Positions 3,411-24,000 of a DNA stretch of 24,000 bases are shown piece by piece. Numbering within the stretch: position 1 is the first letter of the stretch; every line of letters begins with the position of its first letter. Source of the DNA: Nanobdellota archaeon (lineage in GTDB: Archaea; Nanobdellota; Nanobdellia; Pacearchaeales; GW2011-AR1); NCBI GenBank assembly GCA_038045705.1, contig JBBSXO010000003.1, positions 128,828 through 152,827 on the forward strand, in the 5' to 3' direction. The position numbers and the translations under genes were made by a program. The notes under the pieces are model-generated. The model saw only the letters and a list, made by a program, of their open reading frames with translations. It ran no database searches and was not told the origin of the DNA.

Positions 3411-3428
3411 CTAATTACAAATTACAAT

Positions 3429-5715: not shown

Positions 5716-6050
5716 CTGATAAAATACCCTTCACAGACTTTGAGAAAGTAGACTTGCGAGTTGGAACAATACTCGAAGTTGAGAATCATCCTAAAGCAGA
5801 TAAACTTTATGTCTTAAAAGTAGATTTAGGAGAAGATAGTCCAAGAACAATAGTAGCAGGTCTAAGACCACACTATACTCACGAAAACCTAAAAGGAAAA
5901 CAAGCCATATTCGTAGTTAATCTTGAACCAGTAAATCTCAGAGGAATAGAAAGCAATGGCATGATTCTAGCAGCCTCAAACCAAGAAAAAACTAATGTCT
6001 TTTTCTTAAAACCAGATAAACAAATAGCACCAGGAAGTAAAATACACTAA
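5712..6050 (+). CDS. stand-alone Trbp111/EMAP-type tRNA-binding domain protein (normally the MetRS C-terminal domain)
   Basis: Reads FEKVDLRVGTILEVENHPKADKLYVLKVDLGEDSPRTIVAGL...VVNLEPVNLRGIESNGMILA, the classic OB-fold tRNA-binding domain pattern. Its ATG (5712..5714) overlaps the MetRS TGA (5713..5715) as ATGA. Confidence 0.85.
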   Translation: MTDKIPFTDFEKVDLRVGTILEVENHPKADKLYVLKVDLGEDSPRTIVAGLRPHYTHENLKGKQAIFVVNLEPVNLRGIESNGMILAASNQEKTNVFFLKPDKQIAPGSKIH

Positions 6051-9755: not shown

Positions 9756-12128
9756 ATGGAACCAAAGCTATCAGAAATTAAGAATTGGTCAATAGAATTA
9801 GAAGATAAAATAACTACATTATGGAAAAATAAAGAATTATTTACATTTAATCCTGACACAAAAAAGAAGATCTACTCAATAGACACTCCTCCTCCATATG
9901 TTAATACTCCAATTCATATTGGTCATGCAACAACTTATACTTACATGGACTTTTTTGCAAGATACAAAAGAATGAAGGGTTTTGAAGTTCTTTTCCCCCT
10001 AGGACTAGATAGAAATGGTCTTCCAATAGAATTAGCGACAGAAAAGAAATTCAATGTATCTCCTTTCAAAATAGGCAGGGAACAATTTATAGAATATTGC
10101 AAAAAACTATTACAAGAAGCATCAGAAGAATCAATTCATTCTTTTGCAAAGCTTGGACACTCATATTCATCATATAAAAAAGGCAATAAACTAGGGGAAA
10201 TTTATTATACAGATTCTCCAGAATATAGAAAAATAACACAAGATACATTTATTGACCTGTTCCATAAAGGTCTGATCTATGAAGATGAGAGAATAAATAA
10301 TTGGGACATAAAACTTCAAACAACAGTAGCCGATTCAGAGATAGAATATAAAGAAATTCCGTCTAAATTTAATCATATAGAATGGAAAGTAGAAAAATCA
10401 AAAGAAAAAATAGTAGTTGCCACGACAAGACCAGAATTACTATGCACTTGTGCAATGGTTATCTATAATCCAGAAGATAAAAGATATAGCCATCTAAAAG
10501 GAAAAAAAGCAATAGTTCCTATATTTGGTCATGTTGTTCCAATACAAGAACATCCATTTGCTCAAATGGATAAAGGAACAGGATTAGTAATGATGTGTTC
10601 TACAGGAGATGTTACAGACATCCAATTCTTTAGAGAAATGAAAATAAAACCAAAAATAGCAATTACAAAAGAAGGAAGAATGAATGAACATGCTTCTCAA
10701 TTTAGCGGATTAAAAGTCAAGGAAGCAAGAGAAAAGACAATAGAAGAATTACAAAAACAAGACTTAATAGTAAAACAAGAAAACATCATTCATAGAACTC
10801 CGACTTCAGAAAGGTCAAGTGCAGAGATAGAATTCATACAAATGCCTGAGTATTATCTTAAGCAATTAGAAACATTACCGAAACTAAAAAAAGAAATTAA
10901 TAAGATAAAATTCTACCCTAAACAATCAAAAGAAATTTTAACTAAATGGATAGATTCTATTTCTATTGATTGGCCAATATCTAGAAGAAGGTTTTACGCT
11001 ACTCCTATTCCATTGTGGAGATCAGGCAACTTAATAGCTGTTCCTCCAAAAGGAAAATATTATGAGCCTACAAAAGAAAATGTTCCAAAAGATGCAACAG
11101 TATATGAAAAAGATAAAAAAATAGGTAATGTAAGCGATTTCAAAAACAAAATTTGGATCGGTGAAGAAAAGGTATTTGATACATGGTTTGATTCTTCAAT
11201 TTCAGAACTAAATATCATTCAATATCCTTCAGAATTTGCAAAGAAAGCATATCCAATTTCATTAAGACCACAAGGTAAAGAGATAGTTAGAACTTGGCTT
11301 TATTATTCTTTACTTAGGGGTTATTTGGAAACCAGTAAACTACCTTTTGAGAGTGTTTGGATACATCAACATATAGTAGATACCCAAGGAAGAAAAATGT
11401 CTAAATCTGTAGGAAATGTAATAGATCCTAAAGAAATACTAAAACTTCATGGATCTGAAAGTTTCAGGTTCTGGGCAGCACTAGAAGGAAACCTTGCAGA
11501 GCAGGATCTAAAATGTTCAATGGATAGAATAGGCGCAGAAACAAAAACAATAAACAAATTACTCAATTTAGCAAGATTTGTTACGCAATTCAAAAAACCG
11601 TCCAAAATAAATTTAACTAAAACAGATGATAATTTCATAAATTATATAGACGCAGAAACAATAAAGGTAGATGAAAATTATGAAGAATATGAATTTCATG
11701 CACCTGTTGAAAAATTAAGAAAGTTCCTTTGGGACACTTTTGCTTCACATTATGTGGAAATGATAAAGAACAGAGTTTATAATGAAAATTCTAATTTTAG
11801 TAAAGAAGAAAGCGATTCAGCAAAATACACTTTACACTATTTATTGGAAAGAATAATAACTCTATTATATCCAATAATTCCACAAGTAACTTCAGTTATA
11901 GGAAATGAATTAGGGTTAACATTGCATAAAATAGAATTTCCAAAAGTTATAAAGCAAAAAGAAAATTCTGAAAAAATAATAGAAGAAATAATGAAGTTCA
12001 ATAGTGAAGTTTGGAAACAAAAGAAAGAACAAAGTATTTCACTAAAAGAACCAATCTCAAATATCAAAATACCTTCAAACCTGAAGGACTTTGAAAAGGA
12101 TCTAATAGCATGTCATAATTTAAAATGA
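9756..12128 (+). CDS. valS: class Ia aminoacyl-tRNA synthetase, most likely valyl-tRNA synthetase (790 aa)
   Basis: HIGH motif context is IDTPPPYVNTPIHIGHA (9911..9928) and KMSKS is RKMSKSVGNVIDP (11394..11408). An editing-domain block TTRPELLCTCAMVIYNPEDKRY and DTWFDSS are also present. The 'TPPPY' pre-HIGH context and the size fit ValRS better than IleRS or LeuRS, but I could not confirm this by alignment. Confidence 0.75.
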   Translation: MEPKLSEIKNWSIELEDKITTLWKNKELFTFNPDTKKKIYSIDTPPPYVNTPIHIGHATTYTYMDFFARYKRMKGFEVLFPLGLDRNGLPIELATEKKFNVSPFKIGREQFIEYCKKLLQEASEESIHSFAKLGHSYSSYKKGNKLGEIYYTDSPEYRKITQDTFIDLFHKGLIYEDERINNWDIKLQTTVADSEIEYKEIPSKFNHIEWKVEKSKEKIVVATTRPELLCTCAMVIYNPEDKRYSHLKGKKAIVPIFGHVVPIQEHPFAQMDKGTGLVMMCSTGDVTDIQFFREMKIKPKIAITKEGRMNEHASQFSGLKVKEAREKTIEELQKQDLIVKQENIIHRTPTSERSSAEIEFIQMPEYYLKQLETLPKLKKEINKIKFYPKQSKEILTKWIDSISIDWPISRRRFYATPIPLWRSGNLIAVPPKGKYYEPTKENVPKDATVYEKDKKIGNVSDFKNKIWIGEEKVFDTWFDSSISELNIIQYPSEFAKKAYPISLRPQGKEIVRTWLYYSLLRGYLETSKLPFESVWIHQHIVDTQGRKMSKSVGNVIDPKEILKLHGSESFRFWAALEGNLAEQDLKCSMDRIGAETKTINKLLNLARFVTQFKKPSKINLTKTDDNFINYIDAETIKVDENYEEYEFHAPVEKLRKFLWDTFASHYVEMIKNRVYNENSNFSKEESDSAKYTLHYLLERIITLLYPIIPQVTSVIGNELGLTLHKIEFPKVIKQKENSEKIIEEIMKFNSEVWKQKKEQSISLKEPISNIKIPSNLKDFEKDLIACHNLK

Positions 12129-12175
12129 AAACAAAACATTTAAATATAACTTGATGTTATATTTTATTATACTCA

Positions 12176-12394
12176 ATGTATAACATGGAAACCGAATTAA
12201 AAACTTTGGCAAGAACAAGGAGAATAGGGGGATCTCTAGTTATAACAATACCTATGGAAATAGTAAAAGAAGAACAGCTAGAAGAAAATCAAGTAGTAGA
12301 AATTTCTGTAAAAAAATCAAGAAAAAGTTACTTTGGAGCACTCAAAGGAATAGGTCCTTTCACAAGAAAAGATAGAATGGAAGATAGATTTTAA
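12176..12394 (+). CDS. vapB: AbrB/SpoVT-fold antitoxin (VapB-type)
   Basis: RRIGGSLVITIPMEIVKEEQLEENQVVEISVKK is the typical swapped-hairpin AbrB/MazE-like motif. The 72-aa ORF has a stop (12392..12394) that overlaps the next ATG by 1 nt (TAATG). Confidence 0.75.
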   Translation: MYNMETELKTLARTRRIGGSLVITIPMEIVKEEQLEENQVVEISVKKSRKSYFGALKGIGPFTRKDRMEDRF

Positions 12395-12777
12395 TGAAAT
12401 ACTTTGTTGACTCCTCCGCGTGGATAGAATATTTTAATGGAAGTTCAGCAGGCGAAAAAGTAAATGACATTATGTTAAATGAGGAAAGCGAAATATTTAT
12501 CATTAACATTAATATAGGAGAAGTCGTTAGTTTTCTAAAAAGAGAAAGCAAAAACATTGAAACCGCTTATGAATCTATGATAAAAAGAGCAAAAATATTT
12601 GAGATAACTCCAAGGATTGCCAAAGAAGCTGGAATATTGCACGCGGAAAAAAGAATGAACAAATCAACTATTTCTTTGGCAGACACTTTAATCATTAGTG
12701 CTGCAAAATCAATAAATGCAAAAATAGTAGCTAAAGATCCTCATTTTAAAGATGTAAAAGAAGCAATTCTACTCTAA
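12394..12777 (+). CDS. vapC: PIN-domain ribonuclease toxin (VapC)
   Basis: MKYFVDSSAWIEYF carries the first conserved Asp. Later acidic residues occur in NIGEV, LADTLIISAA and KDPHF. The 127-aa size and translational coupling to an AbrB antitoxin also fit. Confidence 0.8.
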   Translation: MKYFVDSSAWIEYFNGSSAGEKVNDIMLNEESEIFIININIGEVVSFLKRESKNIETAYESMIKRAKIFEITPRIAKEAGILHAEKRMNKSTISLADTLIISAAKSINAKIVAKDPHFKDVKEAILL

Positions 12778-12870
12778 TCCACAACCTTTAAAATTATCTC
12801 AAAAGTTATAATTTTAAACCTGTTAATCTCAATTAACAATGTTTAAAACACAATTTTAACACTTAATAAC

Positions 12871-13965
12871 ATGAACGACAAACAAAAACTCCAATTAGAA
12901 GAACAAATTGAAGAATTAGAATCTGTAAGAGGAAGACATACAGAATTAGTTACAGTATTAATTCCTGTTGATTTTAATATTCATAGTGTAACAAAACAAC
13001 TAGAAGCAGAGCGTTCAACAGCAGATAACATTAAATCAAAAGCAACTCGTTCAGCTGTTACCGACGCTATTGATATGATTGTACGTTTCCTTAAAGGTAC
13101 AAAACAAACTCCTCCAAATGGTTTAGCTTTGTATGCAGGAAATGTTTCACAAAAAGAAGGAGTTCAAGACATGAAATTATGGTCTATTGAACCTCCTAAG
13201 CCATTAAAAGTTAGAATGTACCGCTGTGATCAAGTATTTGTAACAGAACCATTAAGAAACATGTTACAAACAGATGAAGTCTATGGTCTTATTGTAATAG
13301 ATAGGCAAGAAGCAACATTGGGATTATTAGAAGGAAAGCAGATTAAAGTTTTAAGACATCTAACTTCAGGAGTTCCAAGCAAAGTAAGAGCAGGTGGACA
13401 GAGCGCACAAAGGTTTCACAGAATTACAGAAGGTCTGGCTAAGGAATTCTTTAGACGTACAGCTGAAGCAGCAAAAGAATTGTTTTTTGAGTTACCAAGA
13501 TTAAAAGGATTACTTGTTGGAGGACCAATACCTACCAAGGAAGAATTTTTAGAAGATGGGAATTTAGTTACAAAGTTGAAAGAAAAAGTAATTGCCGTAA
13601 AAGATATAGGTTACGTCGATGAACATGGATTAAAATTATTAGTGGAAGCATCTCAAGAAGACATAGCCGAACAAGAAATAATAAAAGAAAAGAAAATAAT
13701 AGAAGAATTTTTCATGACATTAGGGAAATATCCTGAAAAAACAACTTATGGAGAAGAAAAAACAAAAGTTGCATTCGAGAGAGGAGCAGTCTACAAGTTG
13801 ATTTTATCAAATAAATTAGAGAAAAGTAAAATAGCAGAGTTTGAAAAATTAGCTTTAAACATAGGATCTGAAGTAAGTCTAGTTTCAGATGAAACTCCTG
13901 AAGGAGAACAATTTTTTAATATTACAAAAGGAATTGGAGCTATTTTAAGATTTCAAATAGAATAA
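12871..13965 (+). CDS. prf1: peptide chain release factor aRF1 (short form, 364 aa)
   Basis: The NIKS stop-codon recognition motif is at 13027..13038 (ADNIKSKATR). The GGQ peptidyl-hydrolysis motif is at 13393..13401 (RAGGQSAQRFHR). The C-terminal GIGAILRF is typical. Confidence 0.9.
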   Translation: MNDKQKLQLEEQIEELESVRGRHTELVTVLIPVDFNIHSVTKQLEAERSTADNIKSKATRSAVTDAIDMIVRFLKGTKQTPPNGLALYAGNVSQKEGVQDMKLWSIEPPKPLKVRMYRCDQVFVTEPLRNMLQTDEVYGLIVIDRQEATLGLLEGKQIKVLRHLTSGVPSKVRAGGQSAQRFHRITEGLAKEFFRRTAEAAKELFFELPRLKGLLVGGPIPTKEEFLEDGNLVTKLKEKVIAVKDIGYVDEHGLKLLVEASQEDIAEQEIIKEKKIIEEFFMTLGKYPEKTTYGEEKTKVAFERGAVYKLILSNKLEKSKIAEFEKLALNIGSEVSLVSDETPEGEQFFNITKGIGAILRFQIE

Positions 13966-13983: not shown

Positions 13984-16900
13984 TCAATTGTAACCTGTCT
14001 TCCTAATTAATCTGTTTCCCATCAAACTCTTAAATCTCCTATGCTTTCTCACAGAATGAACTATTACTATCATTACAATAATTATCCCAACAATAAGAGT
14101 ACTCATTATTATCCAGAATACTAATCTTATTTGAGAATCAATAGGACTATCTTCAGTCAATGTTTCAGTTTCCTCCAAATCTTCATCGACTAACTGAGTT
14201 TCATCAAGCTCAATATTATCATTATCATTAGAACATCCTGTATCAGATGGATAGTCAACTAATCCATCACCATCATTATCAACTTCATCATTACATTGAG
14301 TAACTAAAGTATTAGTTCTTCTAGGAGGACCACCAGTCCCACTTCCAGAACTACTTCCACTTCCAGATCCAGAACTACTAGAACCAGATCCAGTCCCACA
14401 CGTTCCACAATCAGAAGCACAAGAAGAACAAGTCTCACTTAATACATGACAATAATTATCTCCACAAGTAGAGTTTAGAGTACTGTAATTACTAAACCCT
14501 ACAGCAGTCATCACAAATTCACCATTAGAGTAAGATAAAGGAGTACACTTTGTAGAAGGACAAGTAACATTCCCAGATGAAGTCTGAATTATAGGAACAG
14601 GAGCTTGAGTATAACTCAAGTTATAGAAAGTAACTCTAGCAGTTTGATTCAATTCAACATAACTTTCACTATATACTCCAACTATATTACTTGCAATAGC
14701 AATAGCATTATTCAAGTTCAAAGCCTGATAAACTCCAGAAACAGATCTCCACAATGAAACCTGTTGTCCTAAGTACTGTATTCTTCCAAGTCCTGGAATT
14801 CCAATAGAAAAGTCAACAACTCTAGTCAAATCAGTAATATTAGAAATATTAGTAGTCAGATTATTATTAAATCTAGAGTAAAGAGGAATAGGACATCCAC
14901 TATCTCCTACTAAATCACGAGTTCCATCACAATCATTATCCAGTCCATCTCTACACAATTCAACCCCAGTTTCAACAGTAGCATATCCTGAAATAGAATT
15001 GTAATTACATCCAGGCCAGTTATTATTAGTACAAGTCTCAAATGAATTCAGACAAACTCCTCTCTGTTCTCCACAGTTTCTAACCTGTCCGTTAGTACAA
15101 ACAGGTAAACTCAAAACAGTTAAGTTATAATTTACATTTCTAACAACTGTTCCACTTGTTCCAGTAATTATAATACTTTGATTAGAAACCAAAGTAGCAC
15201 TAGAAGAAGCAGATAAAGTAAGAGTTGAAGAGCAAGAATTTCCACTAGAAGGAGTACAACTTGTTGGATTAAATAACGCAGAAATTCCAGCAGATAAGTT
15301 AGTAGCAGTAAATGTCACAGCAGATGAAGTTCCAGAAGTATGAGTCGCAGTAACTGTAGTAGAAACAGTGTTACCTCTTTGTACAGATCCAGATGTAGGA
15401 CTTCTAGAAATTGTAAAGTCTAATGGAGCACTTTGATTTGTAGTATTACTAGCAAGATTAGACCAACCTGAAACACCAACACTATTATTCGCTAAAACTC
15501 TATATTCAAATGAAGTACTTGTAGGCAAACCATTATCAGTAAATGTAATTGTATTTGCAGGCAAGTTAGAAGCAGTAGACAATACATTAAAGCTACCAGA
15601 AGGTAATTGTCTTCTCTCAACTCTGAAGTTCATTTCATTATCGCTATTGTCTTTCCAATTAAGTCTCAACTGTATAGAACTTACTGGAGTAACGTTTAAG
15701 TCAGAAGGGGAGTTAGGCAAACTCCCAGGTACACATCCCTCATCAACCTGACCATCACAGTCATTATCTAATCCATCACAAGTGCTTTCAATTACTTGAT
15801 AATTAGAATTATGAGTTACATATGTAGTAGGTGAATAAGTAGGGGCACTGCATCCCCACCAATTCTTAAACTTACAAGTCTCTCTTGATCCAGCACAAAC
15901 TCCTCTCTGTTCTTGACAATTTCTTTGCGTGTTTTCAGTACAGAGATCATTAGGGTTCCATTGCCGACCATAATCAGACCTATGAGTAACCCATAATTGG
16001 TCAAGCCATCTTCGCCAATCAGGAAATTGGGTAACACCTTCAATTTGCATATAACGATCCATATATGGGAAATAAACATCATGATTCCAAAGATCAGTAA
16101 TGCCCATAATATGAGCGGCTAAAGCATAACCAACCCATGAACTAGCAGTACAACAAATACGATAACCATTTCCAGTCCAAATAACATTATCACCTCTAGG
16201 ATCGTCCCAATGATTCCAACCCCAATCAGGAAGTCCTATATCAGCAGAAGTATACCCTCCATAACCACAATTCACACCTCCTGCAGAACATTCAGGAATA
16301 ACAGAAGGAGGTGTATTTACAGGATAATTAGTTACAGCAAAAGTCTGTCCAGTATCTCCAAAATAGCCTGGATCAGTATTATCAAAACGAATCCTAGACA
16401 TACCTTGATCATTAAGCAAAGCTCCCGCAAAAAGAATTGGGAACAACCGACCGGAGCCATGGCCCCCATTAGGAAACCAAGAATCATTAACATTAACACG
16501 ATTGTTAAAAGCACCATAGAAATCAATACCTAATTGAGTAAGCATAACAACTAATCTTTCTTTTTCCGCATTAGTATAATTAAGATTAACTAAAATAGCT
16601 ATATAAGAAACATCTAAAGCAAAAGCTCCACCATATCCAGAGGCACCTAAAGAAGGTTGAACCCCTTCAGTTCTCCAATAATTAGTCTGAACATTAACAC
16701 GTTCAAATGTTTTTTCTATCTGTGATATGTTTAAAGGAGAAGGTGGAGCGCTAGAGGGAGTTAATCTTCCCAGACGATTATAATCTAATTGATTTTTATT
16801 AAAACGAATAGTTTTATCTGTTCCAAAATAAGTCGGTCTAAAACTATTTGCTGGAGGTACTTGAGTAAGAATAGTTAATACTGCAGCATCTCTAACAAAA

Positions 16901-17859
16901 CCTCTTGTACATGAGAATGTAATGCTGTTAACTGCATCCCAGCCATATGTAGCTCCGCAAGTAGAAGGAGTAGTCTGACTTTCTGTAGATAAAAGAGATG
17001 CAGAAGCAGTAATAGTTAAAGGGAAAGTTGGCCGTAATGTAGCATCATAAGAAGGCCCATCATTATTACTAAGACGATCATCATAAGGTTGACCGCTTAG
17101 ACCACTACGAAAACTTGGATTCAACCATGAACCATGCCTTCCAGGTATTTGTAAAGGAGAAGTACTAGTAATTGTTACAGGACCAATAACCCACCAATCT
17201 CCATTAGCAAATTGCCCGCATTCAACAGGTGTTTGAAAATTCCAAGTAATTCCATAACGAGTAATTGAAGAACACAAAGCACTTTCAGGTCCAGACCCAC
17301 CAGAAGGAGATAAAGAAGAATCATCGCCATAAAAAAGATAAATTTTTTCAGAAACCAAATTCTTAGAATAACTAGGAGAAGAGCTAAGACTAACAATAGA
17401 ATAAATTTCAAGTCTAGAATCTTCTGAAGATTCATCCGCCAAAATTAAAACTCCATCGGTAATTTTCCAGTCAAATGAAGCAACACCATTTTCAAAAACG
17501 CTTTGAAGATTAATTATATGGTCATCAAACAGGATATCTTTTTCAAAAATCTCAAAATCAACTTTATAACCATCACAATTTTTTCCAAAAACTTCAAAGT
17601 GAACAACATCTCCAATTTTAACAGAATTAACACTCGATGAAACTCTTTCAATTATACACGAAGAACCAATATCTACATTAGGAAAAGTTCTAAGATCTGA
17701 AATATTAAGAAGAGAATCTTCTTCAGAAATAACTTTGCCTGTAATTGTCCCATCAATATCAAAAAAACTATAAGTCTTATTTACGTCAAAAAATAAAACA
17801 AAAGAAAAAAAAGCAATAAAAAAAACAAATATAATAAAAAAATCAACACTCCACTTCAT
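13984..17859 (-). CDS. giant modular surface protein A (1291 aa): N-terminal signal/anchor, beta-sandwich, about 450-aa unassigned enzyme-like domain, Cys-rich DNDCDG module, FN3, Ig-like, second Cys-rich module, shared C-terminal cassette with TM anchor
   Basis: - N-terminus is MKWSVDFFIIFVFFIAFFSFVLFF.
- The FN3-like domain is at about 15430..15715 (PSDLNVTPVSSIQLRLNWKDNSDNEMNFRVERR...FEYRVLANNSVGVSGWS).
- CxxQRGVC...CDGLDNDCDG modules are at about 15725..15950 and about 14890..15110.
- The Gly/Ser linker is at about 14333..14397.
- QCNDEVDNDGDGLVDYPSDTGC is at about 14230..14305.
- The C-terminal TM helix is FWIIMSTLIVGIIIVMIVIV, followed by a basic tail.
- There are many N-x-S/T sequons.
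- The reading frame is uninterrupted for 3.9 kb in AT-rich DNA. Confidence 0.85.
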   Translation of the reverse strand: MKWSVDFFIIFVFFIAFFSFVLFFDVNKTYSFFDIDGTITGKVISEEDSLLNISDLRTFPNVDIGSSCIIERVSSSVNSVKIGDVVHFEVFGKNCDGYKVDFEIFEKDILFDDHIINLQSVFENGVASFDWKITDGVLILADESSEDSRLEIYSIVSLSSSPSYSKNLVSEKIYLFYGDDSSLSPSGGSGPESALCSSITRYGITWNFQTPVECGQFANGDWWVIGPVTITSTSPLQIPGRHGSWLNPSFRSGLSGQPYDDRLSNNDGPSYDATLRPTFPLTITASASLLSTESQTTPSTCGATYGWDAVNSITFSCTRGFVRDAAVLTILTQVPPANSFRPTYFGTDKTIRFNKNQLDYNRLGRLTPSSAPPSPLNISQIEKTFERVNVQTNYWRTEGVQPSLGASGYGGAFALDVSYIAILVNLNYTNAEKERLVVMLTQLGIDFYGAFNNRVNVNDSWFPNGGHGSGRLFPILFAGALLNDQGMSRIRFDNTDPGYFGDTGQTFAVTNYPVNTPPSVIPECSAGGVNCGYGGYTSADIGLPDWGWNHWDDPRGDNVIWTGNGYRICCTASSWVGYALAAHIMGITDLWNHDVYFPYMDRYMQIEGVTQFPDWRRWLDQLWVTHRSDYGRQWNPNDLCTENTQRNCQEQRGVCAGSRETCKFKNWWGCSAPTYSPTTYVTHNSNYQVIESTCDGLDNDCDGQVDEGCVPGSLPNSPSDLNVTPVSSIQLRLNWKDNSDNEMNFRVERRQLPSGSFNVLSTASNLPANTITFTDNGLPTSTSFEYRVLANNSVGVSGWSNLASNTTNQSAPLDFTISRSPTSGSVQRGNTVSTTVTATHTSGTSSAVTFTATNLSAGISALFNPTSCTPSSGNSCSSTLTLSASSSATLVSNQSIIITGTSGTVVRNVNYNLTVLSLPVCTNGQVRNCGEQRGVCLNSFETCTNNNWPGCNYNSISGYATVETGVELCRDGLDNDCDGTRDLVGDSGCPIPLYSRFNNNLTTNISNITDLTRVVDFSIGIPGLGRIQYLGQQVSLWRSVSGVYQALNLNNAIAIASNIVGVYSESYVELNQTARVTFYNLSYTQAPVPIIQTSSGNVTCPSTKCTPLSYSNGEFVMTAVGFSNYSTLNSTCGDNYCHVLSETCSSCASDCGTCGTGSGSSSSGSGSGSSSGSGTGGPPRRTNTLVTQCNDEVDNDGDGLVDYPSDTGCSNDNDNIELDETQLVDEDLEETETLTEDSPIDSQIRLVFWIIMSTLIVGIIIVMIVIVHSVRKHRRFKSLMGNRLIRKTGYN
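14249..14349. repeat. 101-nt near-identical DNA patch shared with 18192..18292 (copy in protein A gene)
   Basis: Base-by-base comparison by hand gives 7 mismatches in 101 nt, with the last 37 nt identical (14313..14349 = 18256..18292, TAGTTCTTCTAGGAGGACCACCAGTCCCACTTCCAGA). It encodes GGPPRRT..LVTQCND.VDNDGDGLVDYP. Confidence 0.9.
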
Positions 17860-17917
17860 AAAGAAAAAAGAATAAGGCTATTTATAAGGTTTATTATAGC
17901 TCTATCTCGACTACAAA
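17860..17917 (-). promoter_or_regulatory. promoter of giant protein A gene in the 58-nt gap between the two giant genes
   Basis: TTTATAA (17881..17887) is centred about 25 nt upstream of the ATG at 17859. The 14-mer AATAAGGCTATTTA (17871..17884) is identical to 421..434, upstream of the left-edge ORF. Confidence 0.45.
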
Positions 17918-20900
17918 TCAAATCCCTAGAGGAGGCGAATTACTTGAACTTGAAGCAACTTTTGCAAGATTATTAAATCTATTTTTTCCAATCAAATATC
18001 TAAGGATGATCATAGAAGCAATAACAATTCCACCAATAAGCGCAACAATAACTATCCAAAAGATAATCTTTATCTCAAAGACTCTTTCAAGAGGAGTAGG
18101 TAAGCTTTGGTCTTCACCTTCTGATTCATCAATCAAAGAGTCTACATTCAATTCAACATTATCTTGGGCATTGCTACAACCAGCATCTCTAGGATAATCA
18201 ACTAGTCCATCACCATCATTGTCAACTCTATCATTACATTGAGTAACTAAAGGAGTAGTTCTTCTAGGAGGACCACCAGTCCCACTTCCAGATCCAGAAC
18301 CTGAGCCAGATCCACTTCCACTAGAAGAAGGGCATGCCCCACAATCAGAACTACAAGAAGAACAAGTCTCACTCAGGCTGCAGTAAGTGTCTCCACAACT
18401 AGAGTTTCTAGTACTATAATTACTAAATCCAGCAACATTCATACTAAATACACCATTAAGATAAGCCAAACTTTGACATGATGTAGAAGGACAAATAACA
18501 TATCCAGTAGAACTTGAAACAACAGGAGTAGGTGCTTCCGAATAAGACAAACCTTCAAATGTTAAAACAGCAGTTTGATCAAGTTCAGGATTACTTAGAG
18601 CATCAACACCAATCAAATTATTTTCTATAGTTACAGCATCATCCAAATTCAAGGCCTGATGAATTCCAGAAGCATTTCTCAAAACAGAAACTCTCTGTCC
18701 TAAGTATTGTATTCTTCCAGCTCCAGAAACTGCTAGAGACATATCTTGAACATTGCTTAAATCAGGAACAGCAAAGAAATTAGTAGTCAATGGAGAAATA
18801 AATCCAGTAACAGAAGGAACAGGACACCCATTCAAAGTACTAACAACTGTAGATATAGACGTATTAAGACATAAATCTAAATTATTTGGAACTGGTCCAT
18901 CTGGAATACTGTCTCCATCATTATCAAAACTACAGATATTATTATAACACAATCCAGTAGTATATGTAGAACCAGCAATAACGCAATCAGAGCCAGAGCT
19001 TAATAGACAAGACTCTCCAAAATCACACAACAAACCAGCAGGTGTGCAAATAGGGCCACCGCCATCTCTACAGGTTTCATGAGAATCCTGAATACCATTA
19101 CTACATTCAGCAAGAGTTCCTGTCTCTCCTTGCAAAGTCAATGTAACCCGACGGACAACGTTAGTAGTTTGAGATGTTGCAGTAATAACTATGGGATAAT
19201 TTTGTTCAACAACATTTCCAACATCTACATCAAGAGTTACATTACAAGTAGGATTAGGGTTTCCAGCACTAGGAGTACATCTATCTGATCCAACAAAACT
19301 AACAGAAGCTTCAGGAATAGATTGAGCAGACACAACAACTTCTTCTTGAGTCATTTCAACAAGACTCTCTAATTTAACTTCGACATTAAATGAAGATCCA
19401 GAAACAACAGGAACTGTAGAAGGATTCAAAGTAGATAGATAACTAAATGGATAATTCACTCTAAGATTTTGCGGAGAAGAAGAAACAATACCATCTCCAC
19501 TTATAACTCTTATTGCAAAATCACCTACTAATGTCCCTAATATTCCAGGAGGTAAAGACAATTGTATTAAGTTAGAATTAGCAACAGTTGTTAAAGGAGT
19601 TATATCTATTCCATTTGCAGTAACAAAAGCCAAAGGATCAAAATCATTTCCAACTAGATTAATAATATTATTAACATTGTTAACAATAATATTAGGAGAA
19701 ATAGAATTTATCACAGGACTAGATCTCAAAGTAAAAGTGAAAGAGTTAGAATTCAGTCCAGGAGCAGGAGTCGGATTTACAACACTAATGGAGTGAGTTC
19801 CAACTCTAAATGTTTCAGCCTCAATATTAAAAGAGATACTATTTCCAGTAATAACTAAGTTCTGACATTGCGTAGAACAAGGAACTCCATCAATTCTTAA
19901 TTCAGCATTAGACGCAAAATATTGCCCATTAATAGTTAAAGCATTATCAGATCCCCACAAAAATATAGGGCTAGGAAGATTATTTATGTTATTTATAACT
20001 GGGCTCTGATCAACACAACCGCAAGAATTAGCATTACAACTTTGTGATTGAGAACAACCACTACTAGAATCACATGTAGCACCACACTGATTGATCCTAC
20101 ATTGATAAGAACCAGCACAAGTACCTGCATCTACACATCTATCTGGACTACCACTAGATTTAGTTCCACTAGTACCAGCACATTCAACACACCATTGACA
20201 AAGATTACCAGGTGCAGTATTACAAGATGTACTTGTACTGTATCCAGAACAAGAACCAGCAGTTATTTGCACGTTAGAAGTCAAAGCATTTCCGCTTCTA
20301 TAAGATATAGAAGAATCAATATCACATCTTGCAATTTGAGTTATTCCAGGAGTAGAAGAACTTAAACAATTAAAAGTAGCTGTACTTCCACTAGAACTAG
20401 ATAAAGCACAAGTAGAGGAACCAATAAATCCATCTAATGCAACGGCAACATTTGCAGGATTTGAAGTACAAACTAAATTAAAATTAGTATTTGCATTAAC
20501 ACTAGAAGGCGCATTTATGTTTGTAATCTGAATAGAACATCCACTATCTCCTTTAATTAAACCATCTCCACTTCCAATATAATCTCTTCCACCAGTAGCA
20601 ATATTGAGTTCATCACAGTCATTATCCATACCATCAGAACACAAAGCAGAACCAGTTTCAACAGAAGCATAATTGGGACTATGAGATGAATATGTCCCAG
20701 AAGTGCAAGCCTCAAACTCTCCATCAACACATCTAGCAACAGAACCTTGACAAACACCCTGTTGATTGCTACAAGGAATAGTATCAACACCATCAAGACA
20801 AGTAGTAGCTTCTATAGTCAAAGGTAACCAATTAGCAGAATACTGCAAGAAAGGATTGCCAGTAGGATCAAATACATTAGCATATTGATATTCTAAAGAT

Positions 20901-21973
20901 GCAGGATCCTGTCCTTGAGGAATTACAAAAGTAAATGTATTGCTATCAACCCAATTACAATTATAATTACTTCCAACAAGGTAATTACAAACATCTATAG
21001 TCGTTTGAGTAAGTGTATCTCTTACAAAAATTGAATACTCTGGCATCAAATTAGTCCCGGTAATTGTAATTGGTCTTGCAATATTATGTCTTACAGTCCC
21101 GGGAGTTAATGTATTAATTACAGGAACAGGTGCATTCCTAATAGTAAGCTGCTGAGGTTGAGATTCTCGAAAATTATCTAAATTAACAACCTTAATATCG
21201 TAAACATCTGCAATAGCATTTCTCTGTACAGGAAATCTAATTTCATTAACACTAACTCTAGAACAACCAAGAGTCGCAAAAGAACAATAAGGATCATAAT
21301 TAGATTGTTCTTGAGGTTTATAAAAAATAGCAAAATTAACTGGAAGGTTATCTCCTAGCATAGAAACATCAGTTAAAACATGATTGTAAACAGGGTTAGG
21401 ATTAAACGAATTAATAATAGGAGCATCAGATAAAGTAACTCCAGTAGCTGTATTTGACCAAGGAGATGATAAAATTATATTATAAGCAAGAACTCTATAA
21501 TCGTAAGAAGTGCTTGGCATAAGATTATTATGTATAAATGATTCTGTATTTGGAGGTAAACCATTAGCTCCCTGAACATCTGCCCAAGCAGACTCTGGAG
21601 CAGAAGATAATTTATATTGTAAAATAAATCCATCTTCACTATTACTTGGACTATTACTATTGTCAGTCCAATCCAGCCTTATAGAAGAAAAACTTAAAGG
21701 TGTAGCAGTTAAATCACTAGGTGGTAAAGGTGGTTCAGTTGGATCATCAGTAGGCTGTAAAAGAATGCCATCGACAGGATTAACAAAAGGATAAATAATT
21801 TTAGACAAAACAGAATCTCCCAATTCATATTCGGAAGGTGAAGCCTCTCCAGTAGAAATATATTCTGCAACACAAGGAAGAGAACCACAATTATTAGCAT
21901 AATCTAAGTAAAGCACAAAAGCAGATAAAAAACTAAAAATAACAACTACAAATAAAAAACCATCTCTTTTCAT
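17918..21973 (-). CDS. giant modular surface protein B (about 1351 aa from ATG 21973): N-terminal anchor, FN3, 2 IPT/TIG-like, Cys-rich DNDCD module, Cys/Ser/Gly-rich segment, 2 IPT/TIG-like, Ig-like, Cys-rich linker, shared C-terminal cassette with TM anchor
   Basis: - The start is moved from the TTG at 22108 to the ATG at 21973 (MKRDGFLFVVVIFSFLSAFVLYL).
- The FN3-like domain is at about 21430..21725 (PPSDLTATPLSFSSIRLDWTD...YDYRVLAYN).
- IPT/TIG-like repeats begin PIINSFNP, PVINTLTP, PVINNINN and PVINSISP (about 20815..21430 and 19450..20005).
- CSNQQGVCQGS...CSDGMDNDCDE is at about 20535..20810.
- The C-terminal third is paralogous to protein A, including the (GS)n linker, QCNDRVDNDGDGLVDYPRDAGC and the TM helix IIFWIVIVALIGGIVIASMIIL. 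Confidence 0.85.
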   Translation of the reverse strand: MKRDGFLFVVVIFSFLSAFVLYLDYANNCGSLPCVAEYISTGEASPSEYELGDSVLSKIIYPFVNPVDGILLQPTDDPTEPPLPPSDLTATPLSFSSIRLDWTDNSNSPSNSEDGFILQYKLSSAPESAWADVQGANGLPPNTESFIHNNLMPSTSYDYRVLAYNIILSSPWSNTATGVTLSDAPIINSFNPNPVYNHVLTDVSMLGDNLPVNFAIFYKPQEQSNYDPYCSFATLGCSRVSVNEIRFPVQRNAIADVYDIKVVNLDNFRESQPQQLTIRNAPVPVINTLTPGTVRHNIARPITITGTNLMPEYSIFVRDTLTQTTIDVCNYLVGSNYNCNWVDSNTFTFVIPQGQDPASLEYQYANVFDPTGNPFLQYSANWLPLTIEATTCLDGVDTIPCSNQQGVCQGSVARCVDGEFEACTSGTYSSHSPNYASVETGSALCSDGMDNDCDELNIATGGRDYIGSGDGLIKGDSGCSIQITNINAPSSVNANTNFNLVCTSNPANVAVALDGFIGSSTCALSSSSGSTATFNCLSSSTPGITQIARCDIDSSISYRSGNALTSNVQITAGSCSGYSTSTSCNTAPGNLCQWCVECAGTSGTKSSGSPDRCVDAGTCAGSYQCRINQCGATCDSSSGCSQSQSCNANSCGCVDQSPVINNINNLPSPIFLWGSDNALTINGQYFASNAELRIDGVPCSTQCQNLVITGNSISFNIEAETFRVGTHSISVVNPTPAPGLNSNSFTFTLRSSPVINSISPNIIVNNVNNIINLVGNDFDPLAFVTANGIDITPLTTVANSNLIQLSLPPGILGTLVGDFAIRVISGDGIVSSSPQNLRVNYPFSYLSTLNPSTVPVVSGSSFNVEVKLESLVEMTQEEVVVSAQSIPEASVSFVGSDRCTPSAGNPNPTCNVTLDVDVGNVVEQNYPIVITATSQTTNVVRRVTLTLQGETGTLAECSNGIQDSHETCRDGGGPICTPAGLLCDFGESCLLSSGSDCVIAGSTYTTGLCYNNICSFDNDGDSIPDGPVPNNLDLCLNTSISTVVSTLNGCPVPSVTGFISPLTTNFFAVPDLSNVQDMSLAVSGAGRIQYLGQRVSVLRNASGIHQALNLDDAVTIENNLIGVDALSNPELDQTAVLTFEGLSYSEAPTPVVSSSTGYVICPSTSCQSLAYLNGVFSMNVAGFSNYSTRNSSCGDTYCSLSETCSSCSSDCGACPSSSGSGSGSGSGSGSGTGGPPRRTTPLVTQCNDRVDNDGDGLVDYPRDAGCSNAQDNVELNVDSLIDESEGEDQSLPTPLERVFEIKIIFWIVIVALIGGIVIASMIILRYLIGKNRFNNLAKVASSSSNSPPLGI
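18192..18292. repeat. 101-nt near-identical DNA patch shared with 14249..14349 (copy in protein B gene)
   Basis: See the paired feature: 94 of 101 positions are identical by hand alignment. Flanking sequence stays recognisably similar at lower identity, for example TCCACAA(G/C)TAGAGTTT..AGTACT.TAATTACTAAA.CC at about 14461 versus about 18392. Confidence 0.9.
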
Positions 21974-22087
21974 TACAATAGATATAACTAAGTCATTTAT
22001 AAAGTTTATTCTAAAAATTACTAGATTATTAATAACTATATCTTTAATGGTAACAAACAATATAAAGCAAAATCCATCTGCAACACA
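21974..22087. promoter_or_regulatory. divergent promoter region (giant protein B / MCM)
   Basis: TTTATAAA (21996..22003) is centred about 27 nt from the minus-strand ATG at 21973. AATATAAAGC (about 22059..22068) is centred about 24 nt from the plus-strand ATG at 22088. Confidence 0.45.
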
Positions 22088-24000
22088 ATGGAGCTTGGAA
22101 AGAAACAAGAATTGGAACTAGAAGCAAAAAGATTCTTTGAAAGCTATAAGAAAGAAATATTTCAATCAATAAGAGGAGGAGGTCAAGTTGTAATTTTAGA
22201 ATTCGATATGTTATCTAGATTTTCTCCAATGCTTTCTGAAAAGCTCTTAGAAATTCCAGAAGAAATAACTGCACTATTAGAAATCTCATTGGATGAGACT
22301 GGTCTCATAAAAAATCCAAGAATCAGATTCAAAACACTTCCAGATTCGGTAAAAATAAAAATAAAAGAAATTCGTGCAAAACACCTAGATCAATTTATTG
22401 CAATTGAAGGAATAGTAAGACAAGCTTCAGATGTTAGACCACAAGTTGTAAACGCAAGATTCGAGTGTCCTACATGTGGTGCAATTTTATCAGTTCTTCA
22501 AATAGACAGAAAGTTTCGTGAGCCTTCAAGATGTTCCTGTGGGAGAAAAGGTCTATTCAAATTATTATCAAAAGAAATGGTTGATGCTCAGCGTCTAGTG
22601 ATTGAGGAATCTCCCGACTCACTAGATGGAGGTGAACAACCAAGAAGAATGAATGTTTTTCTGAAAGAAGACTTAGTAGATCCTAAAATGGAAGAGAGAA
22701 CAACTCCAGGAAGCAAGGTAAAAATAATTGGAGTTCTAAAAGAAGTCCCTGTTCCACTACCACAAGGCTCTATTTCAACAAGATTTGATTTAGCAATTGA
22801 AGCCAATAATGCAATCCCTTTAGAAGAAACATTCGATGATTTAGAAGTTAATGAAAAAGATGAAGAAGAGATAAGGAAAATAGCATCGGATCCAAAAGCT
22901 TTTGAAAAGTTAGCATCAAGTATAGCTCCTAGTGTATATGGTTTCAAAGAAGTGAAAGAAGCAATTCTATTACAATTATTTTCAGGAGTAAAAAAGAAGC
23001 GTTCTGACGGGGGAAATACGAGGGGAGATATTCATATTTTATTAGTAGGAGATCCAGGAGTAGCAAAATCAGTTACTTTAAAATTTGTATCAAGTATTGC
23101 TCCAAAGGGACGTTATGTTTCAGGTAAAGCTACAACTGGAGCTGGGTTGACTGCAAGTGTAATAAAAGATGAGTTTCTAAAGGGCTGGTCTTTAGAAGCA
23201 GGAGCAATGGTGTTAGCAAATAAAGGTTTAATAGCCATTGATGAAATTGAAAAAATGGACGAACATGATCGTTCAACTATGCATGAAGCGATGGAACAAC
23301 AAAGCGTAACAATATCTAAAGCTAATATTCAGGCAACATTAAGATCTGAAACATCTGTTCTAGCTGCAGGAAATCCAAAACTAGGAAGATTTGACCCAAT
23401 AATTCCAATTCCTCAACAAATTAACATTTCTCCAGCGCTTTTAAGCCGTTTTGACGTAATTTTTGTTTTGAGAGACTTGCCCAATAGAGTGCAAGATGAA
23501 GCAATCGCATCACATGTTTTAGAAGAACATAAGCAAGAAGTAGAGAGAGATGTAATTAATCCAAAAATGTTACGTAAATATATTGCATACGCTAGAAAAA
23601 AAGTAAAACCCAAGTTAACAGATGAGGCAGCCGATGAAATAAAAGAATTCTATATATCCATACGTAATAAAGCAATCACTTCAAATTCAGAAGTAAAAGC
23701 AATCCCTATTACTGCAAGACAGTTAGAAGCAATAGTAAGATTATCAGAAGCATGTGCAAAAATTAGATTAAGCAATTACGTTGCTTTAGAAGATGCAAGA
23801 AGAGCCATAGCACTCTTAAAATATTCAATGATGCAAGTAGGTTTTGACCAAGAAACCCAATCATTTGATATTGATAGAGTCACAACAGGAATACCCGCAT
23901 CAAAGAGGAATAAAATTATAGTAGTTCGAGACACAATAGCAAAGTTAGAATCAAGTCTAGGAAAACTAATACCTACAATAGAATTAGAAAAAGAAATAGG
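22088..24000 (+). CDS. mcm: MCM replicative helicase, N-terminal about 637 aa (ORF continues past the right edge)
   Basis: Absent from the ORF track because there is no stop in the window. The hand translation runs from ATG 22088.
- C4 zinc finger: CPTCG...CSCG (about 22466..22545).
- Walker A: GDPGVAKS (about 23049..23072).
- Walker B: IAIDEIEKM (about 23234..23257).
- MCM signature: SVTISKANIQATL...AAGNP.
- Arginine finger: SRFD (about 23443..23454).
- The start of a C-terminal winged-helix region is also visible. Confidence 0.9.
   Translation, partial: MELGKKQELELEAKRFFESYKKEIFQSIRGGGQVVILEFDMLSRFSPMLSEKLLEIPEEITALLEISLDETGLIKNPRIRFKTLPDSVKIKIKEIRAKHLDQFIAIEGIVRQASDVRPQVVNARFECPTCGAILSVLQIDRKFREPSRCSCGRKGLFKLLSKEMVDAQRLVIEESPDSLDGGEQPRRMNVFLKEDLVDPKMEERTTPGSKVKIIGVLKEVPVPLPQGSISTRFDLAIEANNAIPLEETFDDLEVNEKDEEEIRKIASDPKAFEKLASSIAPSVYGFKEVKEAILLQLFSGVKKKRSDGGNTRGDIHILLVGDPGVAKSVTLKFVSSIAPKGRYVSGKATTGAGLTASVIKDEFLKGWSLEAGAMVLANKGLIAIDEIEKMDEHDRSTMHEAMEQQSVTISKANIQATLRSETSVLAAGNPKLGRFDPIIPIPQQINISPALLSRFDVIFVLRDLPNRVQDEAIASHVLEEHKQEVERDVINPKMLRKYIAYARKKVKPKLTDEAADEIKEFYISIRNKAITSNSEVKAIPITARQLEAIVRLSEACAKIRLSNYVALEDARRAIALLKYSMMQVGFDQETQSFDIDRVTTGIPASKRNKIIVVRDTIAKLESSLGKLIPTIELEKEI

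Follow-up and report, generated by a model that had tools for sequence, protein, structure and literature searches.

Autoproteolysis at a phenylalanine-serine bond is described for the autoproteolytic domain (APD) of Nup98, in which H862A/Q mutants still cleave; CARD8 cleaves at SF|S, and the phenylalanine and serine are essential (PMC3210808). Earlier work noted ZU5-superfamily autopeptidases in surface proteins of bacteria, alongside adhesion and glycohydrolase modules (PMC3482391), and a part in host contact is generally suspected for the surface proteins of DPANN archaea (PMC6142677; PMC6642349).

We analysed a 24,000-nucleotide stretch of DNA from a very small, probably symbiotic DPANN archaeon (the window), in which two large genes, A (positions 13984-17859, 1291 aa) and B (17918-21973, 1351 aa), lie side by side. 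Both ORFs were intact and on the minus strand, where all the features of A and B listed below lie, in agreement with the initial annotation of two adjacent large genes on the same strand. The product of A exactly matched an entry of the protein collection, MEK6908933.1, named by NCBI 'MAG: fibronectin type III domain-containing protein [Nanoarchaeota archaeon]', whereas no exact entry for B was found in the public collection. A longer TTG-initiated ORF for B reaches 22108 and thereby overlaps the divergent MCM gene, whose start is at 22064. Because of this overlap, we took the ATG at 21973 as the real start of B. The A-B spacer is 58 bp and the divergent B/MCM spacer is 90 bp. On reading the sequence, a TATA-like element was seen in each: TTATAAATA at 17879-17887, with its centre ~24 nt upstream of the A ATG, and TTTATAAAT at 21995-22003, with its centre ~26 nt upstream of the B ATG. 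Both are candidate promoter elements. The dN/dS ratio was below 1 in all domains of both proteins, ranging per domain from 0.11 to 0.59 in A (relative to its orthologue at L005 6707-10885) and from 0.12 to 0.53 in B, and every domain is thus under purifying selection (dN/dS 0.1-0.6). The B orthologues (P0056/L001 and that of L006) were 82 % identical to B and of equal length.

In a Kyte-Doolittle scan, each protein had two hydrophobic segments and no more, one N-terminal and the other C-terminal; K/R residues lie at the N-terminus, and the C-terminal helix is followed by a basic tail, as had been claimed from the sequence. The N-terminal h-regions are ~18 residues long and have no obvious small -3/-1 cleavage site. 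In A, this helix (residues 1-26, 17782-17859; Kyte-Doolittle maximum 2.77) could be a signal peptide or a signal anchor; in B (residues 1-24, 21902-21973), it is followed by a conserved LDYxxxCGSxPC motif. The C-terminal TM helix spans residues 1244-1268 in A (14056-14130; maximum 3.03) and 1301-1325 in B (17999-18073), and AlphaFold placed a helix at 251-295 of the A C-terminal fragment. BLASTP aligned A and B over a C-terminal block of ~500 aa with 40 % identity. It ends in both with a Gly/Ser linker, a QCNDxxDNDGDG...GC loop, an acidic stretch, the TM helix and the basic tail, which confirmed the C-terminal order given in the initial annotation. Cysteines number 38 in A and 56 in B, or 3-4 % of residues. 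These results support the view that A and B are large modular proteins that lie outside the cell, are rich in disulfides and are anchored in the membrane at the C-terminus.

Immediately outside the C-terminal anchor region, both proteins contain a conserved β-sandwich that sequence-profile comparison identifies as a homologue of the Nup98/Nup145 APD (ZU5 superfamily). It occupies residues 991-1131 of A (14467-14889) and 1051-1192 of B (18398-18823). PF04096 was the sole Pfam family matched by the APD-like modules, in 7 of 10 (best E = 1.4e-5); the A module reached 19.5 bits, below the gathering score of 28.4. Against PDB, the top match of the APD-like profile was the human Nup98 APD, and five of the seven matches were Nup98. 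In hhalign, the comparison with PDB-verified Nup98 733-883 gave 87.2 % (E = 3.9e-6) over 104 columns reaching GFSNY/HFSKY. When more members were added (divergent metagenome sequences with a canonical H-F-T-x-Y), this rose to 95.7 % (E = 8.8e-9), and shuffles reached at most 2.1 %. The AlphaFold model of the C-terminal block was poor (pLDDT 52); a low-confidence model matched the Nup116 C-terminal domain (CTD) with a probability of 0.82. The reversed and 30 shuffled hhalign controls reached at most 0.7 %.

The A and B modules end in G-F-S-N-Y where Nup98 has H-F|S-K-Y, and the histidine is thus replaced by glycine in both. The putative scissile bond is F1122|S1123 in A (codons 14491-14496) and F1183|S1184 in B (codons 18422-18427). 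F-S/T-x-Y was invariant in all 15 APD-like modules despite identities of 32-80 %, an argument for selection on the bond itself. The module also had the lowest dN/dS of B (0.12). It is missing altogether from some family members (P0058, P0059 and L005 466-4839) and is therefore not required for anchoring. The initial annotation had not spotted a Nup98-type (ZU5-superfamily) autoproteolysis domain as the family-defining juxtamembrane module.

The remainder of A is built from several modules. Residues 27-178 (17326-17781) form an N-terminal domain of unknown fold that had no Pfam match, occurs only in A-type orthologues and is 85 % identical to that of the L005 orthologue. After the domain at residues 196-636, described below, comes an 8-Cys module (637-710, 15730-15951) with a C-terminal MopE-type motif, CDGxDNDCDG; scanned alone, it gave 27.8 bits to PF11617 against a cutoff of 27. 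FN3 follows (711-811, 15427-15729; PF00041 26.5 bits, cutoff 25, plus PDB FN3 matches), and then an S/T-rich region with 2 Cys (812-917, 15109-15426) that had no Pfam match, is homologous to B 841-948 in the A-B BLASTP and probably adopts an Ig-like fold. A second 8-Cys MopE-type module (918-990, 14890-15108; PF11617 21.8 bits, below threshold) is paralogous to A 637-710 and to B 390-480. Between the APD-like module and the acidic stretch, TM helix and basic cytoplasmic tail (1214-1291, 13987-14220), residues 1132-1213 (14221-14466) contain a 6-Cys knot (CGDxYC...ETCSSCxSDCGxC), the Gly/Ser linker and a QCNDxVDNDGDG...GC disulfide loop. These motifs are invariant columns in alignments A2-A4, and NCBIfam acid_disulf_rpt was matched below threshold.

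Residues 196-636 of A (15952-17274) correspond to the large enzyme-like domain that had been proposed for A only, and it held up as a conserved, unclassified domain of 440 aa, here called domain X. Its AlphaFold model was good (pLDDT 80, pTM 0.87), but no match was found in Pfam, in PDB sequences or in PDB by Foldseek. The family comprises 4361 clusters and is most abundant in Sedimentisphaerales, Planctomycetes and Opitutaceae, which are free-living polysaccharide degraders. Its fusion partners are carbohydrate-binding modules in PVC bacteria and a tail-protein module in cluster-J mycobacteriophages; bacterial members join it to CBM6/35, F5/8-C, malectin, CBM4_9, dockerin or LamG, and CHB_HEX_C is a further partner. 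The gene for the phage LamG-X protein has the tail genes on one side and the lysis cassette on the other. Because of these fusions to carbohydrate-binding and tail-protein modules, domain X is probably glycan-active. A catalytic role is likewise probable from domain association and conservation in a family with no characterised relative: ~16 polar positions were >85 % conserved in 186 members and are retained in A. The FGED motif of the family reads FGDT in A. Domain X of A is 33 % identical to the phage LamG-X protein. With 30-40 % identity to bacterial copies, it appears to have been horizontally acquired or shared. It was only 58 % identical to the L005 orthologue, versus 79-89 % in the flanking domains (dN 0.37 versus 0.07-0.15).

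In B, FN3 (residues 78-182, 21428-21742; PF00041 35.3 bits, plus PDB FN3 matches) precedes TIG-like repeats 1 and 2 (183-389, 20807-21427), an 8-Cys MopE-type module paralogous to both of those in A (390-480, 20534-20806; PF11617 only 12.6 bits), and a 4-Cys Ig-like domain with a 14-Cys region (481-655, 20009-20533) that was assigned from Cys positions and had no Pfam match. TIG-like repeats 3 and 4 (CoaZ_rpt_PGGG) occupy residues 656-840 (19454-20008) and are followed by an Ig-like domain (2 Cys) and a 10-Cys region with FDNDGDSIPD (841-1050, 18824-19453). The APD-like module then leads to the Cys knot, Gly/Ser linker, DNDGDG loop, acidic stretch, TM helix and tail (1193-1351, 17921-18397). 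The four TIG-like repeats reported earlier for B are present: scanned singly against PF01833 (cutoff 20.9), repeats 2 and 3 passed (23.7 and 30.2 bits), repeat 4 was sub-threshold (16.9 bits) and repeat 1 had no Pfam match but the same sequence pattern as the others. NCBIfam CoaZ_rpt_PGGG (NF058597) gave 62.7 bits against a cutoff of 30. FN3 exceeded the Pfam cutoff in both proteins, as had been stated.

A and B are paralogues and belong to a small family of modular cell-surface proteins whose range is restricted to one lineage, the Woesearchaeales/Pacearchaeales-type 'Nanoarchaeota'. Full-length relatives came from no more than a few Woese-/Pace-/Nanoarchaeota MAGs and metagenome contigs, with two to three divergent paralogues of variable domain content per genome. 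No homologue with an assigned function was found, and the domain architecture is undescribed, as the initial annotation had suspected. The tandem pair in an otherwise compact housekeeping locus that it described did not hold up as a unit, since the adjacency is not conserved: L001 and L006 have the order MCM, B, eRF1-like gene with A absent in between. The L006 genome does have an A orthologue on that contig, but at a distance of 23 kb and next to a third paralogue. In L003, a partial A-like gene is followed by P0003, in which domain X is joined to B modules. Domain X thus moves between A-type and B-type scaffolds.

It is improbable that A and B, both doubly anchored and heavily N-glycosylated, work together as a pair dedicated to host-surface attachment and processing. 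Their adjacency on one strand, the shared C-terminal block, the long N-terminal h-regions lacking an obvious cleavage site, the tandem arrangement in L003 and the general suspicion about DPANN surface proteins would fit such a pair. However, the adjacency is missing in L001 and L006, and the proposed two-gene apparatus is contradicted by domain X on a B-type protein in a third relative and by the separate TATA-like element of each gene. The glycosylation argument also failed. Both proteins had been called dense in N-x-S/T sequons, but shuffling predicts 20.3±4.0 for A, which has 20, and 22.7±4.1 for B, which has only 5 (z = -4.3). B-type relatives are likewise depleted (P0003, 0 observed versus 26.7 expected).

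Polysaccharide foraging, with A as a cell-bound depolymerase feeding a fermentative archaeon on polysaccharide of the environment or of biofilms and B as a matrix or particle binder without a specific host, is unlikely but deserves more weight. It would account for the prevalence of domain X in free-living degraders, fused to CBMs and dockerin, and for its apparent horizontal acquisition or sharing. Yet the family is small and occurs solely in DPANN lineages whose genomes are reduced, and the surroundings of the locus contained no genes for sugar uptake or catabolism. Moreover, domain X evolves rapidly and is exchanged like a cassette between close relatives (58 % versus ~85 % in flanks), a pattern that resembles the evolution of receptor specificity, as in the homologue from phage. 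Least probable is a purely structural role, in which A and B would be an S-layer or cell-wall scaffold with an inactive APD-like β-sandwich and domain X a non-catalytic lectin. C-terminal TM anchoring below an Ig-like/FN3/TIG stalk, the lost histidine of HFS and the altered E-D motif of domain X in A are consistent with it. Against it stand the divergent paralogues of variable content, the high Cys fraction, the invariance of F-S/T-x-Y, and the finding that neither an S-layer family nor a PGF/PEF-CTERM-type sorting signal was matched in NCBIfam or Pfam.

We give a little better than an even chance to an anchored pair of modular paralogues encoded by independent genes, with a self-cleaving APD-like module, a glycan-acting domain X on A, and B as an adhesin or spacer. 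Both proteins are exported through the N-terminal hydrophobic segment and held by the C-terminal TM helix with its basic cytoplasmic tail, and FN3, TIG, Ig-like and DNDCDG-type Cys modules make up the ectodomain, a stalk stabilised by disulfides. Judging from its sequence, the APD-like module may cleave itself by an N-O acyl shift at the F|S bond. The large ectodomain would then stay non-covalently on a short Cys-knot/linker/TM stub, an arrangement like that of GAIN, SEA and ZU5-UPA proteins, with shedding or release under load as possible outcomes. If the N-terminal helix stays uncleaved, cleavage at F|S would not free the ectodomain. Near the distal end of A, the fast-evolving domain X is predicted to bind and cleave cell-envelope or matrix polysaccharide. 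B may serve as an adhesin or spacer without enzymatic activity, with N-glycosylation sites kept off its exposed surface. The genes would be independent transcription units, neighbours here through local rearrangement rather than as a fixed two-gene machine. For a DPANN archaeon, contact with a host is plausible, and host attachment may be part of it; the data are equally compatible with a polysaccharide target in the environment.

Intact minus-strand ORFs for both large surface-protein genes were found where the initial annotation had placed them, A at window positions 13984-17859 (1291 aa) and B at 17918-21973 (1351 aa). The mechanically called ORF of B extends to a TTG at 22108; we placed its start at the ATG at 21973 because the extension overlaps the divergent MCM gene, which begins at 22064. 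The NCBI entry for A is MEK6908933.1, 'MAG: fibronectin type III domain-containing protein [Nanoarchaeota archaeon]'. A is present in a collection of 15 billion proteins; for B, translated from ATG-21973 or from TTG-22108, this collection has no exact entry. Gene calling may have missed B or chosen a different start for it, or B may have been flagged in the source annotation. The possibility that A and B are pseudogenes was ruled out, since the ORFs are intact, collinear with their orthologues and under constraint, with dN/dS below 1 in every domain (0.11-0.59 in A and 0.12-0.53 in B, compared with 0.05-0.10 in the neighbouring housekeeping genes).

A Kyte-Doolittle scan detected two and only two hydrophobic segments per protein, one at the N-terminus and one at the C-terminus, both with basic outer flanks, so that by the positive-inside rule almost the whole chain is predicted to be extracellular. 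The N-terminal h-regions, putative uncleaved signal anchors in a doubly anchored topology, are about 18 residues long and have no clear small -3/-1 site, the tail after the C-terminal TM helix is 23-26 aa, and the chains contain 38 (A) and 56 (B) Cys residues. A class-III (prepilin-like) signal peptide was also considered. The start of B, MKRDG/FLF, fits a FlaFind-type pattern, but the orthologues (MKKSIF, MKRGFF) do not keep it, and this candidate was rejected.

The FN3 domains that had been proposed in both proteins were confirmed by PF00041 (26.5 bits in A and 35.3 bits in B, cutoff 25) and by FN3 matches in the PDB. Four TIG-like repeats had been described in B; when scanned singly against PF01833 (cutoff 20.9), repeats 2 and 3 passed with 23.7 and 30.2 bits, but repeat 4 remained sub-threshold at 16.9 bits and repeat 1 gave no match, and PF01833 was not reported in the whole-protein Pfam scan of B. 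NCBIfam called a choice-of-anchor-Z repeat in B at 62.7 bits. The C-terminal ~500 aa of A and B are 40 % identical, and their FN3 and Cys modules match as well; on this sequence evidence the two proteins are paralogues. They also have in common the elements CxDGxDNDCDG and QCNDxxDNDGDGxxDYPxDxGC, which resemble the MopE-type motif (PF11617) and the acidic double-disulfide repeat (NF033662). CDGxDNDCDG terminates three 8-Cys modules, one of which reached the PF11617 cutoff, and the loop scored 17-19 bits against NF033662, far short of its cutoff of 41, with metal or Ca2+ binding no more than putative. MopE-type copper binding was dropped, since the DNDCDG motif is the sole shared feature. The QCNDxxDNDGDGxxDYPxDxGC loop on its own was seen in many CPR bacteria (Saccharibacteria, Kaiserbacteria, Nomurabacteria, Peribacteria), other DPANN archaea, Myxococcota and Bdellovibrionota (L010-L084), mostly small-celled or predatory/episymbiotic lineages.

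The first Pfam scan gave a faint match to PF04096 in the juxtamembrane β-sandwich that precedes the Cys knot (A 991-1131, B 1051-1192). When ten such modules were scanned alone, seven matched PF04096 (Nup98-96 autopeptidase S59) and essentially no other family, with a best E-value of 1.4e-5; the curated threshold was not reached by the A module (19.5 bits, cutoff 28.4). A module profile searched against the PDB retrieved the autoproteolytic domain (APD) of human Nup98 first, and five of the seven matches were Nup98. Comparison by hhalign of 10 module sequences with human Nup98 733-883, a reference sequence verified from PDB entry 7f60_C, gave 87.2 % (E = 3.9e-6, 104 columns), with the alignment ending in GEFVMTAVGFSNY (module) and GSWVFKVSHFSKY (Nup98), whereas the reversed and 30 shuffled controls gave at most 0.7 %. 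Inclusion of divergent metagenome members (15 sequences) raised this to 95.7 % (E = 8.8e-9; shuffles at most 2.1 %). The match to the Nup98/Nup145N/Nup116 APD (PF04096, MEROPS S59) spans ~104 columns, up to and including the terminal strand G-x-[FWL]-x-[FMV]-x-V-x-[HG]-F-[ST]-x-Y. All 15 modules without exception have F-[ST]-x-Y in this strand, in line with F-S-K-Y of Nup98, so that the Phe and the Ser/Thr nucleophile are common to both. Homology of the juxtamembrane module to the Nup98 APD is well supported by these profile comparisons. AlphaFold modelled the C-terminal block poorly (pLDDT 52), and the Foldseek matches of this model provide weak corroboration only; the top match, 9mqr_A, was ignored because it may be a Fab Ig domain. 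The module was not present in the relatives P0058 and P0059 or in a third paralogue, and is therefore an optional accessory of the family. In the metagenome Ga0209211, two giant ORFs, L092 1-12336 (more than 4112 aa) and L093 1-6786 (more than 2262 aa), run past the ends of their loci; each includes a Nup98-APD-like module in its interior, with the canonical V-[ST]-H-F-T-x-Y, and, by eye, many N-x-S/T sites.

The His that precedes the Phe in Nup98 is Gly in A, B and most members, and is retained in P0060, L092 and L093. Published mutagenesis found that H862A/Q barely changed Nup98 cleavage while the Phe and Ser were essential, and the CARD8 cleavage site is S-F/S (PMC3210808). From the APD homology, the F-S/T invariance and this mutagenesis, cis-cleavage is predicted in both proteins, at F1122/S1123 of A and F1183/S1184 of B, and it is from these features that we infer activity. 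A fuller proposal is that the module, a prokaryotic relative of the Nup98 APD, is an active autoprotease, and that the ectodomain stays strand-complemented on a tiny TM stub from which it is shed or released by force; we advance this tentatively and consider it somewhat doubtful as a whole. Under this proposal, the giant ectodomain, which in A would carry a new class of glycan-degrading domain, would be released at a symbiont-host or cell-matrix contact.

The setting of the module differs from that of Nup98. In A and B it is predicted to be extracellular and juxtamembrane in an archaeal surface protein rather than in the nuclear pore, and besides Gly for His it has an extra CxxxxC loop and is followed by a 6-Cys knot instead of Nup96. 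ZU5, GPS and the Nup98 APD were unified by Zhang et al. 2012, who also noted autopeptidases of this kind in surface proteins of bacteria that combine adhesion with glycohydrolase modules (PMC3482391). Compared with the bacterial ZU5 surface proteins of that study, A and B are archaeal and carry the module, which is nearer to Nup98 than to ZU5, at a C-terminal juxtamembrane position. GAIN/GPS of adhesion GPCRs, SEA of mucins and ZU5-UPA/FIIND likewise combine a long adhesive ectodomain, an autoproteolysis-type β-sandwich and a membrane anchor, and by analogy with them (PMC9539791, PMC3210808), two non-covalently joined fragments are predicted for A and B. Unlike in the eukaryotic adhesion receptors, the anchor of A and B consists of one TM helix and a tail of 23-26 aa, in which there is no signalling domain; cleavage of A and B is only predicted, and the likeness to GAIN and SEA is an analogy.

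Among DPANN proteins, the precedent that comes closest in spirit is SPEARE of Nanohaloarchaeota (Hamm et al. 2019, PMC6642349). SPEARE and A/B are very large, mostly extracytoplasmic DPANN proteins that combine adhesion with an enzyme domain (putative in A) and have a TM segment near the C-terminus. The SPEARE ectodomain was recovered in different gel size fractions from the TM and cytoplasmic parts (PMC6642349). SPEARE proteins are larger, at 3-8.5 thousand aa, and contain serine-protease, LamG and conserved cytoplasmic restriction-endonuclease regions. Pfam and NCBIfam detected none of these domains in A or B, there is no sequence similarity, and the A/B cytoplasmic tail is too short for the restriction-endonuclease region.

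The enzyme-like head that the initial annotation had noted in A, domain X (residues 196-636), was modelled by AlphaFold with 20 homologues at pLDDT 80 and pTM 0.87, as an N-terminal β subdomain and a helical subdomain. None of 21 members matched Pfam at E ≤ 1, NCBIfam gave no match, and a domain X profile retrieved nothing from PDB sequences at E ≤ 10. Foldseek against the PDB likewise returned no significant match (best E-value 1.1). The (α/α)6 glycosidases and lyases (GH81, PL8, GH9, GH116) were weighed as a possible assignment and rejected, since their Foldseek matches (E = 3-8, TM below 0.21) were not significant. The sole family-model match was the function-unassigned phrog_34846. An exhaustive HMM search nevertheless placed domain X in 4361 clusters at 50 % identity, 2334 of them at E ≤ 1e-30, so that a domain of several thousand clusters with a confident predicted structure is without a Pfam model or a structural relative in the PDB. 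Some members are stand-alone proteins of ~440 aa. Named carriers belong to Planctomycetes/Sedimentisphaerales, Opitutaceae and Cerasicoccus, together with one Pacearchaeote, and the bacterial fusion partners are CBM6/35, F5/8 type C, malectin, CBM4_9, dockerin, LamG, CHB_HEX_C and a sialidase-like CBM. Among 186 members, conservation exceeds 85 % at ~16 polar residues; A keeps these, with the exception of the family FGED, which is FGDT in A.

Domain X also occurs in 21 cluster-J mycobacteriophages (33 % identity, 94 % coverage; BFVD, tblastn). In these phages (Omegavirus; background in PMC3706429) a 706-aa protein represented by Redno2 gp43 and Halley gp45 (phrog_34846) contains it with a BFVD TM-score of 0.75. 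Its C-terminal two-thirds are domain X and its N-terminus is a LamG/'minor tail protein' module, a fusion also found in many homologues from PVC bacteria. The gene, whose function in the phage is only putative, lies between minor tail genes and the lysin A/lysin B/holin cassette. Its labels vary among hypothetical, 'lysin A' and 'minor tail protein' in Redno2 gp43 (L085 7293-9413) and the 20 other phages, and the genuine lysin A and lysin B genes of Redno2 appear to bear labels displaced by one gene. Domain X is thus common to mycobacteriophages, DPANN archaea and PVC bacteria, and in almost every case carbohydrate-binding modules are linked to it. This wide spread and linkage, together with the absence of a known family, make it a good candidate for a new family of carbohydrate-active enzymes, and by guilt by association we infer that it may bind and cleave glycan.

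Identity between A and its orthologue is only 58 % in domain X and 79-89 % in the domains on either side, and dN is 0.37 in domain X compared with 0.07-0.15 in the flanks, indicating accelerated evolution or allele exchange. Fast diversification of surface proteins has been described in Nanoarchaeota (PMC6142677). Between this genome and that of the related locus L006, the dS of B is 0.23-0.47, ~3-fold below that of the adjacent eRF1-like and aaRS genes (9756-13965, dS about 1.1), and the B protein is nonetheless more diverged than these neighbours. A codon-usage effect may account for this, or populations may recently have exchanged the surface-protein gene.

Both proteins had been described as dense in N-x-S/T sequons, as would suit glycosylated archaeal surface proteins. 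The counts did not bear this out: A has 20 sequons against 20.3±4.0 in shuffled sequences and B has 5 against 22.7±4.1. A-type proteins were at expectation, whereas B-type relatives were depleted, with z-scores of -3.4 in P0056 (the B orthologue of locus L001), -4.0 in P0057 and -4.4 in P0060, and P0003 (from locus L003) has none where 26.7 were expected (z = -6.3). Sequon avoidance was noted for B, P0003, P0056, P0057, P0058, P0060 and the ORF at 466-4839 of L005. Two of the five B sequons directly follow the putative F/S site (FS-NYS-TR-NSS). No sorting-signal model (PGF-CTERM, PEF-CTERM or others) or S-layer model matched A or B at E ≤ 0.1 in NCBIfam or Pfam, and because of this and the sequon statistics a glycosylated S-layer protein was dropped as an explanation. 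The sequon avoidance of B-type proteins and the cassette-like turnover of domain X point to selection on exposed surfaces and specificity.

Full-length relatives of A and B are few and none is named; the complete C-terminal block was found at five loci in four Woese-/Pace-/Nanoarchaeota genomes (GTDB) and at seven metagenome loci. The initial annotation had treated the tandem pair as a unit, but this arrangement is not kept in L001 and L006, where the order is MCM, the B orthologue (82 % identical) and the eRF1-like gene, without A. In the L006 genome the A orthologue, which is 68-70 % identical and has a second FN3 domain, lies 23 kb off beside the third paralogue. L003 has a partial A-like gene followed by P0003 (1886 aa), which joins domain X of A to B modules and adjoins the eRF1-like gene. 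In our window, a TATA-like TTATAAAT element lies 24-26 nt upstream of the ATG of both A and B. The synteny of the relatives and an element for each gene indicate a local arrangement of independently transcribed, module-shuffling paralogues. An A-B operon was dropped on the synteny evidence, and the pair is, judged from gene order, a local arrangement and not a conserved two-gene system.

The window has a low GC content (~32 %) and its housekeeping genes include NAC, an eRF1/Pelota-like factor, class I aminoacyl-tRNA synthetases, MCM and an HhH-GPD glycosylase. The MCM gene (22064-24000, + strand) is divergent from B and extends past the window end; it aligns to residues 1-405 and then 833-1102 of a relative's MCM, a jump indicating that the ~430-aa intein (Intein_splicing and LAGLIDADG) of L001 and L006 is missing here. 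A tRNA-Gly(CCC) at 3307-3378 (- strand) overlaps the 5' end of a mechanically called Zot-like P-loop ORF (3306-4241, + strand), whose true start is probably more downstream. At 4273-6050 (+ strand), MetRS is divided into two ORFs with a 4-nt overlap, one for the core (480 aa) and one for the tRNA-binding domain (112 aa, PF01588), a split also present in L003. At 12176-12777 (+ strand), between the aaRS and eRF1-like genes, a 72-aa ORF abuts a PIN-domain gene (12394-12777); the L001 counterpart of the ORF has a weak MazE_antitoxin match, and the two look like a VapBC-like toxin-antitoxin pair.

The observation behind the initial annotation was largely real and its interpretation half right: modular surface proteins, with an enzyme-like head in A, are supported, but the glycosylation, the paired apparatus and host specificity are not. 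DPANN archaea are believed to live in attachment to other cells and, to our knowledge, very few of the molecules at this contact have been identified. Two features, the Nup98-type module and the unclassified domain X, set A and B above an ordinary large adhesin. If the module is a true relative of the Nup98 APD in a prokaryotic surface protein, it would bear on the origin of this nuclear-pore module. If self-cleavage at F/S occurs, autoproteolytic tethering of adhesins in the manner of GAIN, SEA and ZU5 would extend to archaea, and A and B, if active, would be the first archaeal 'cleavable adhesins'.
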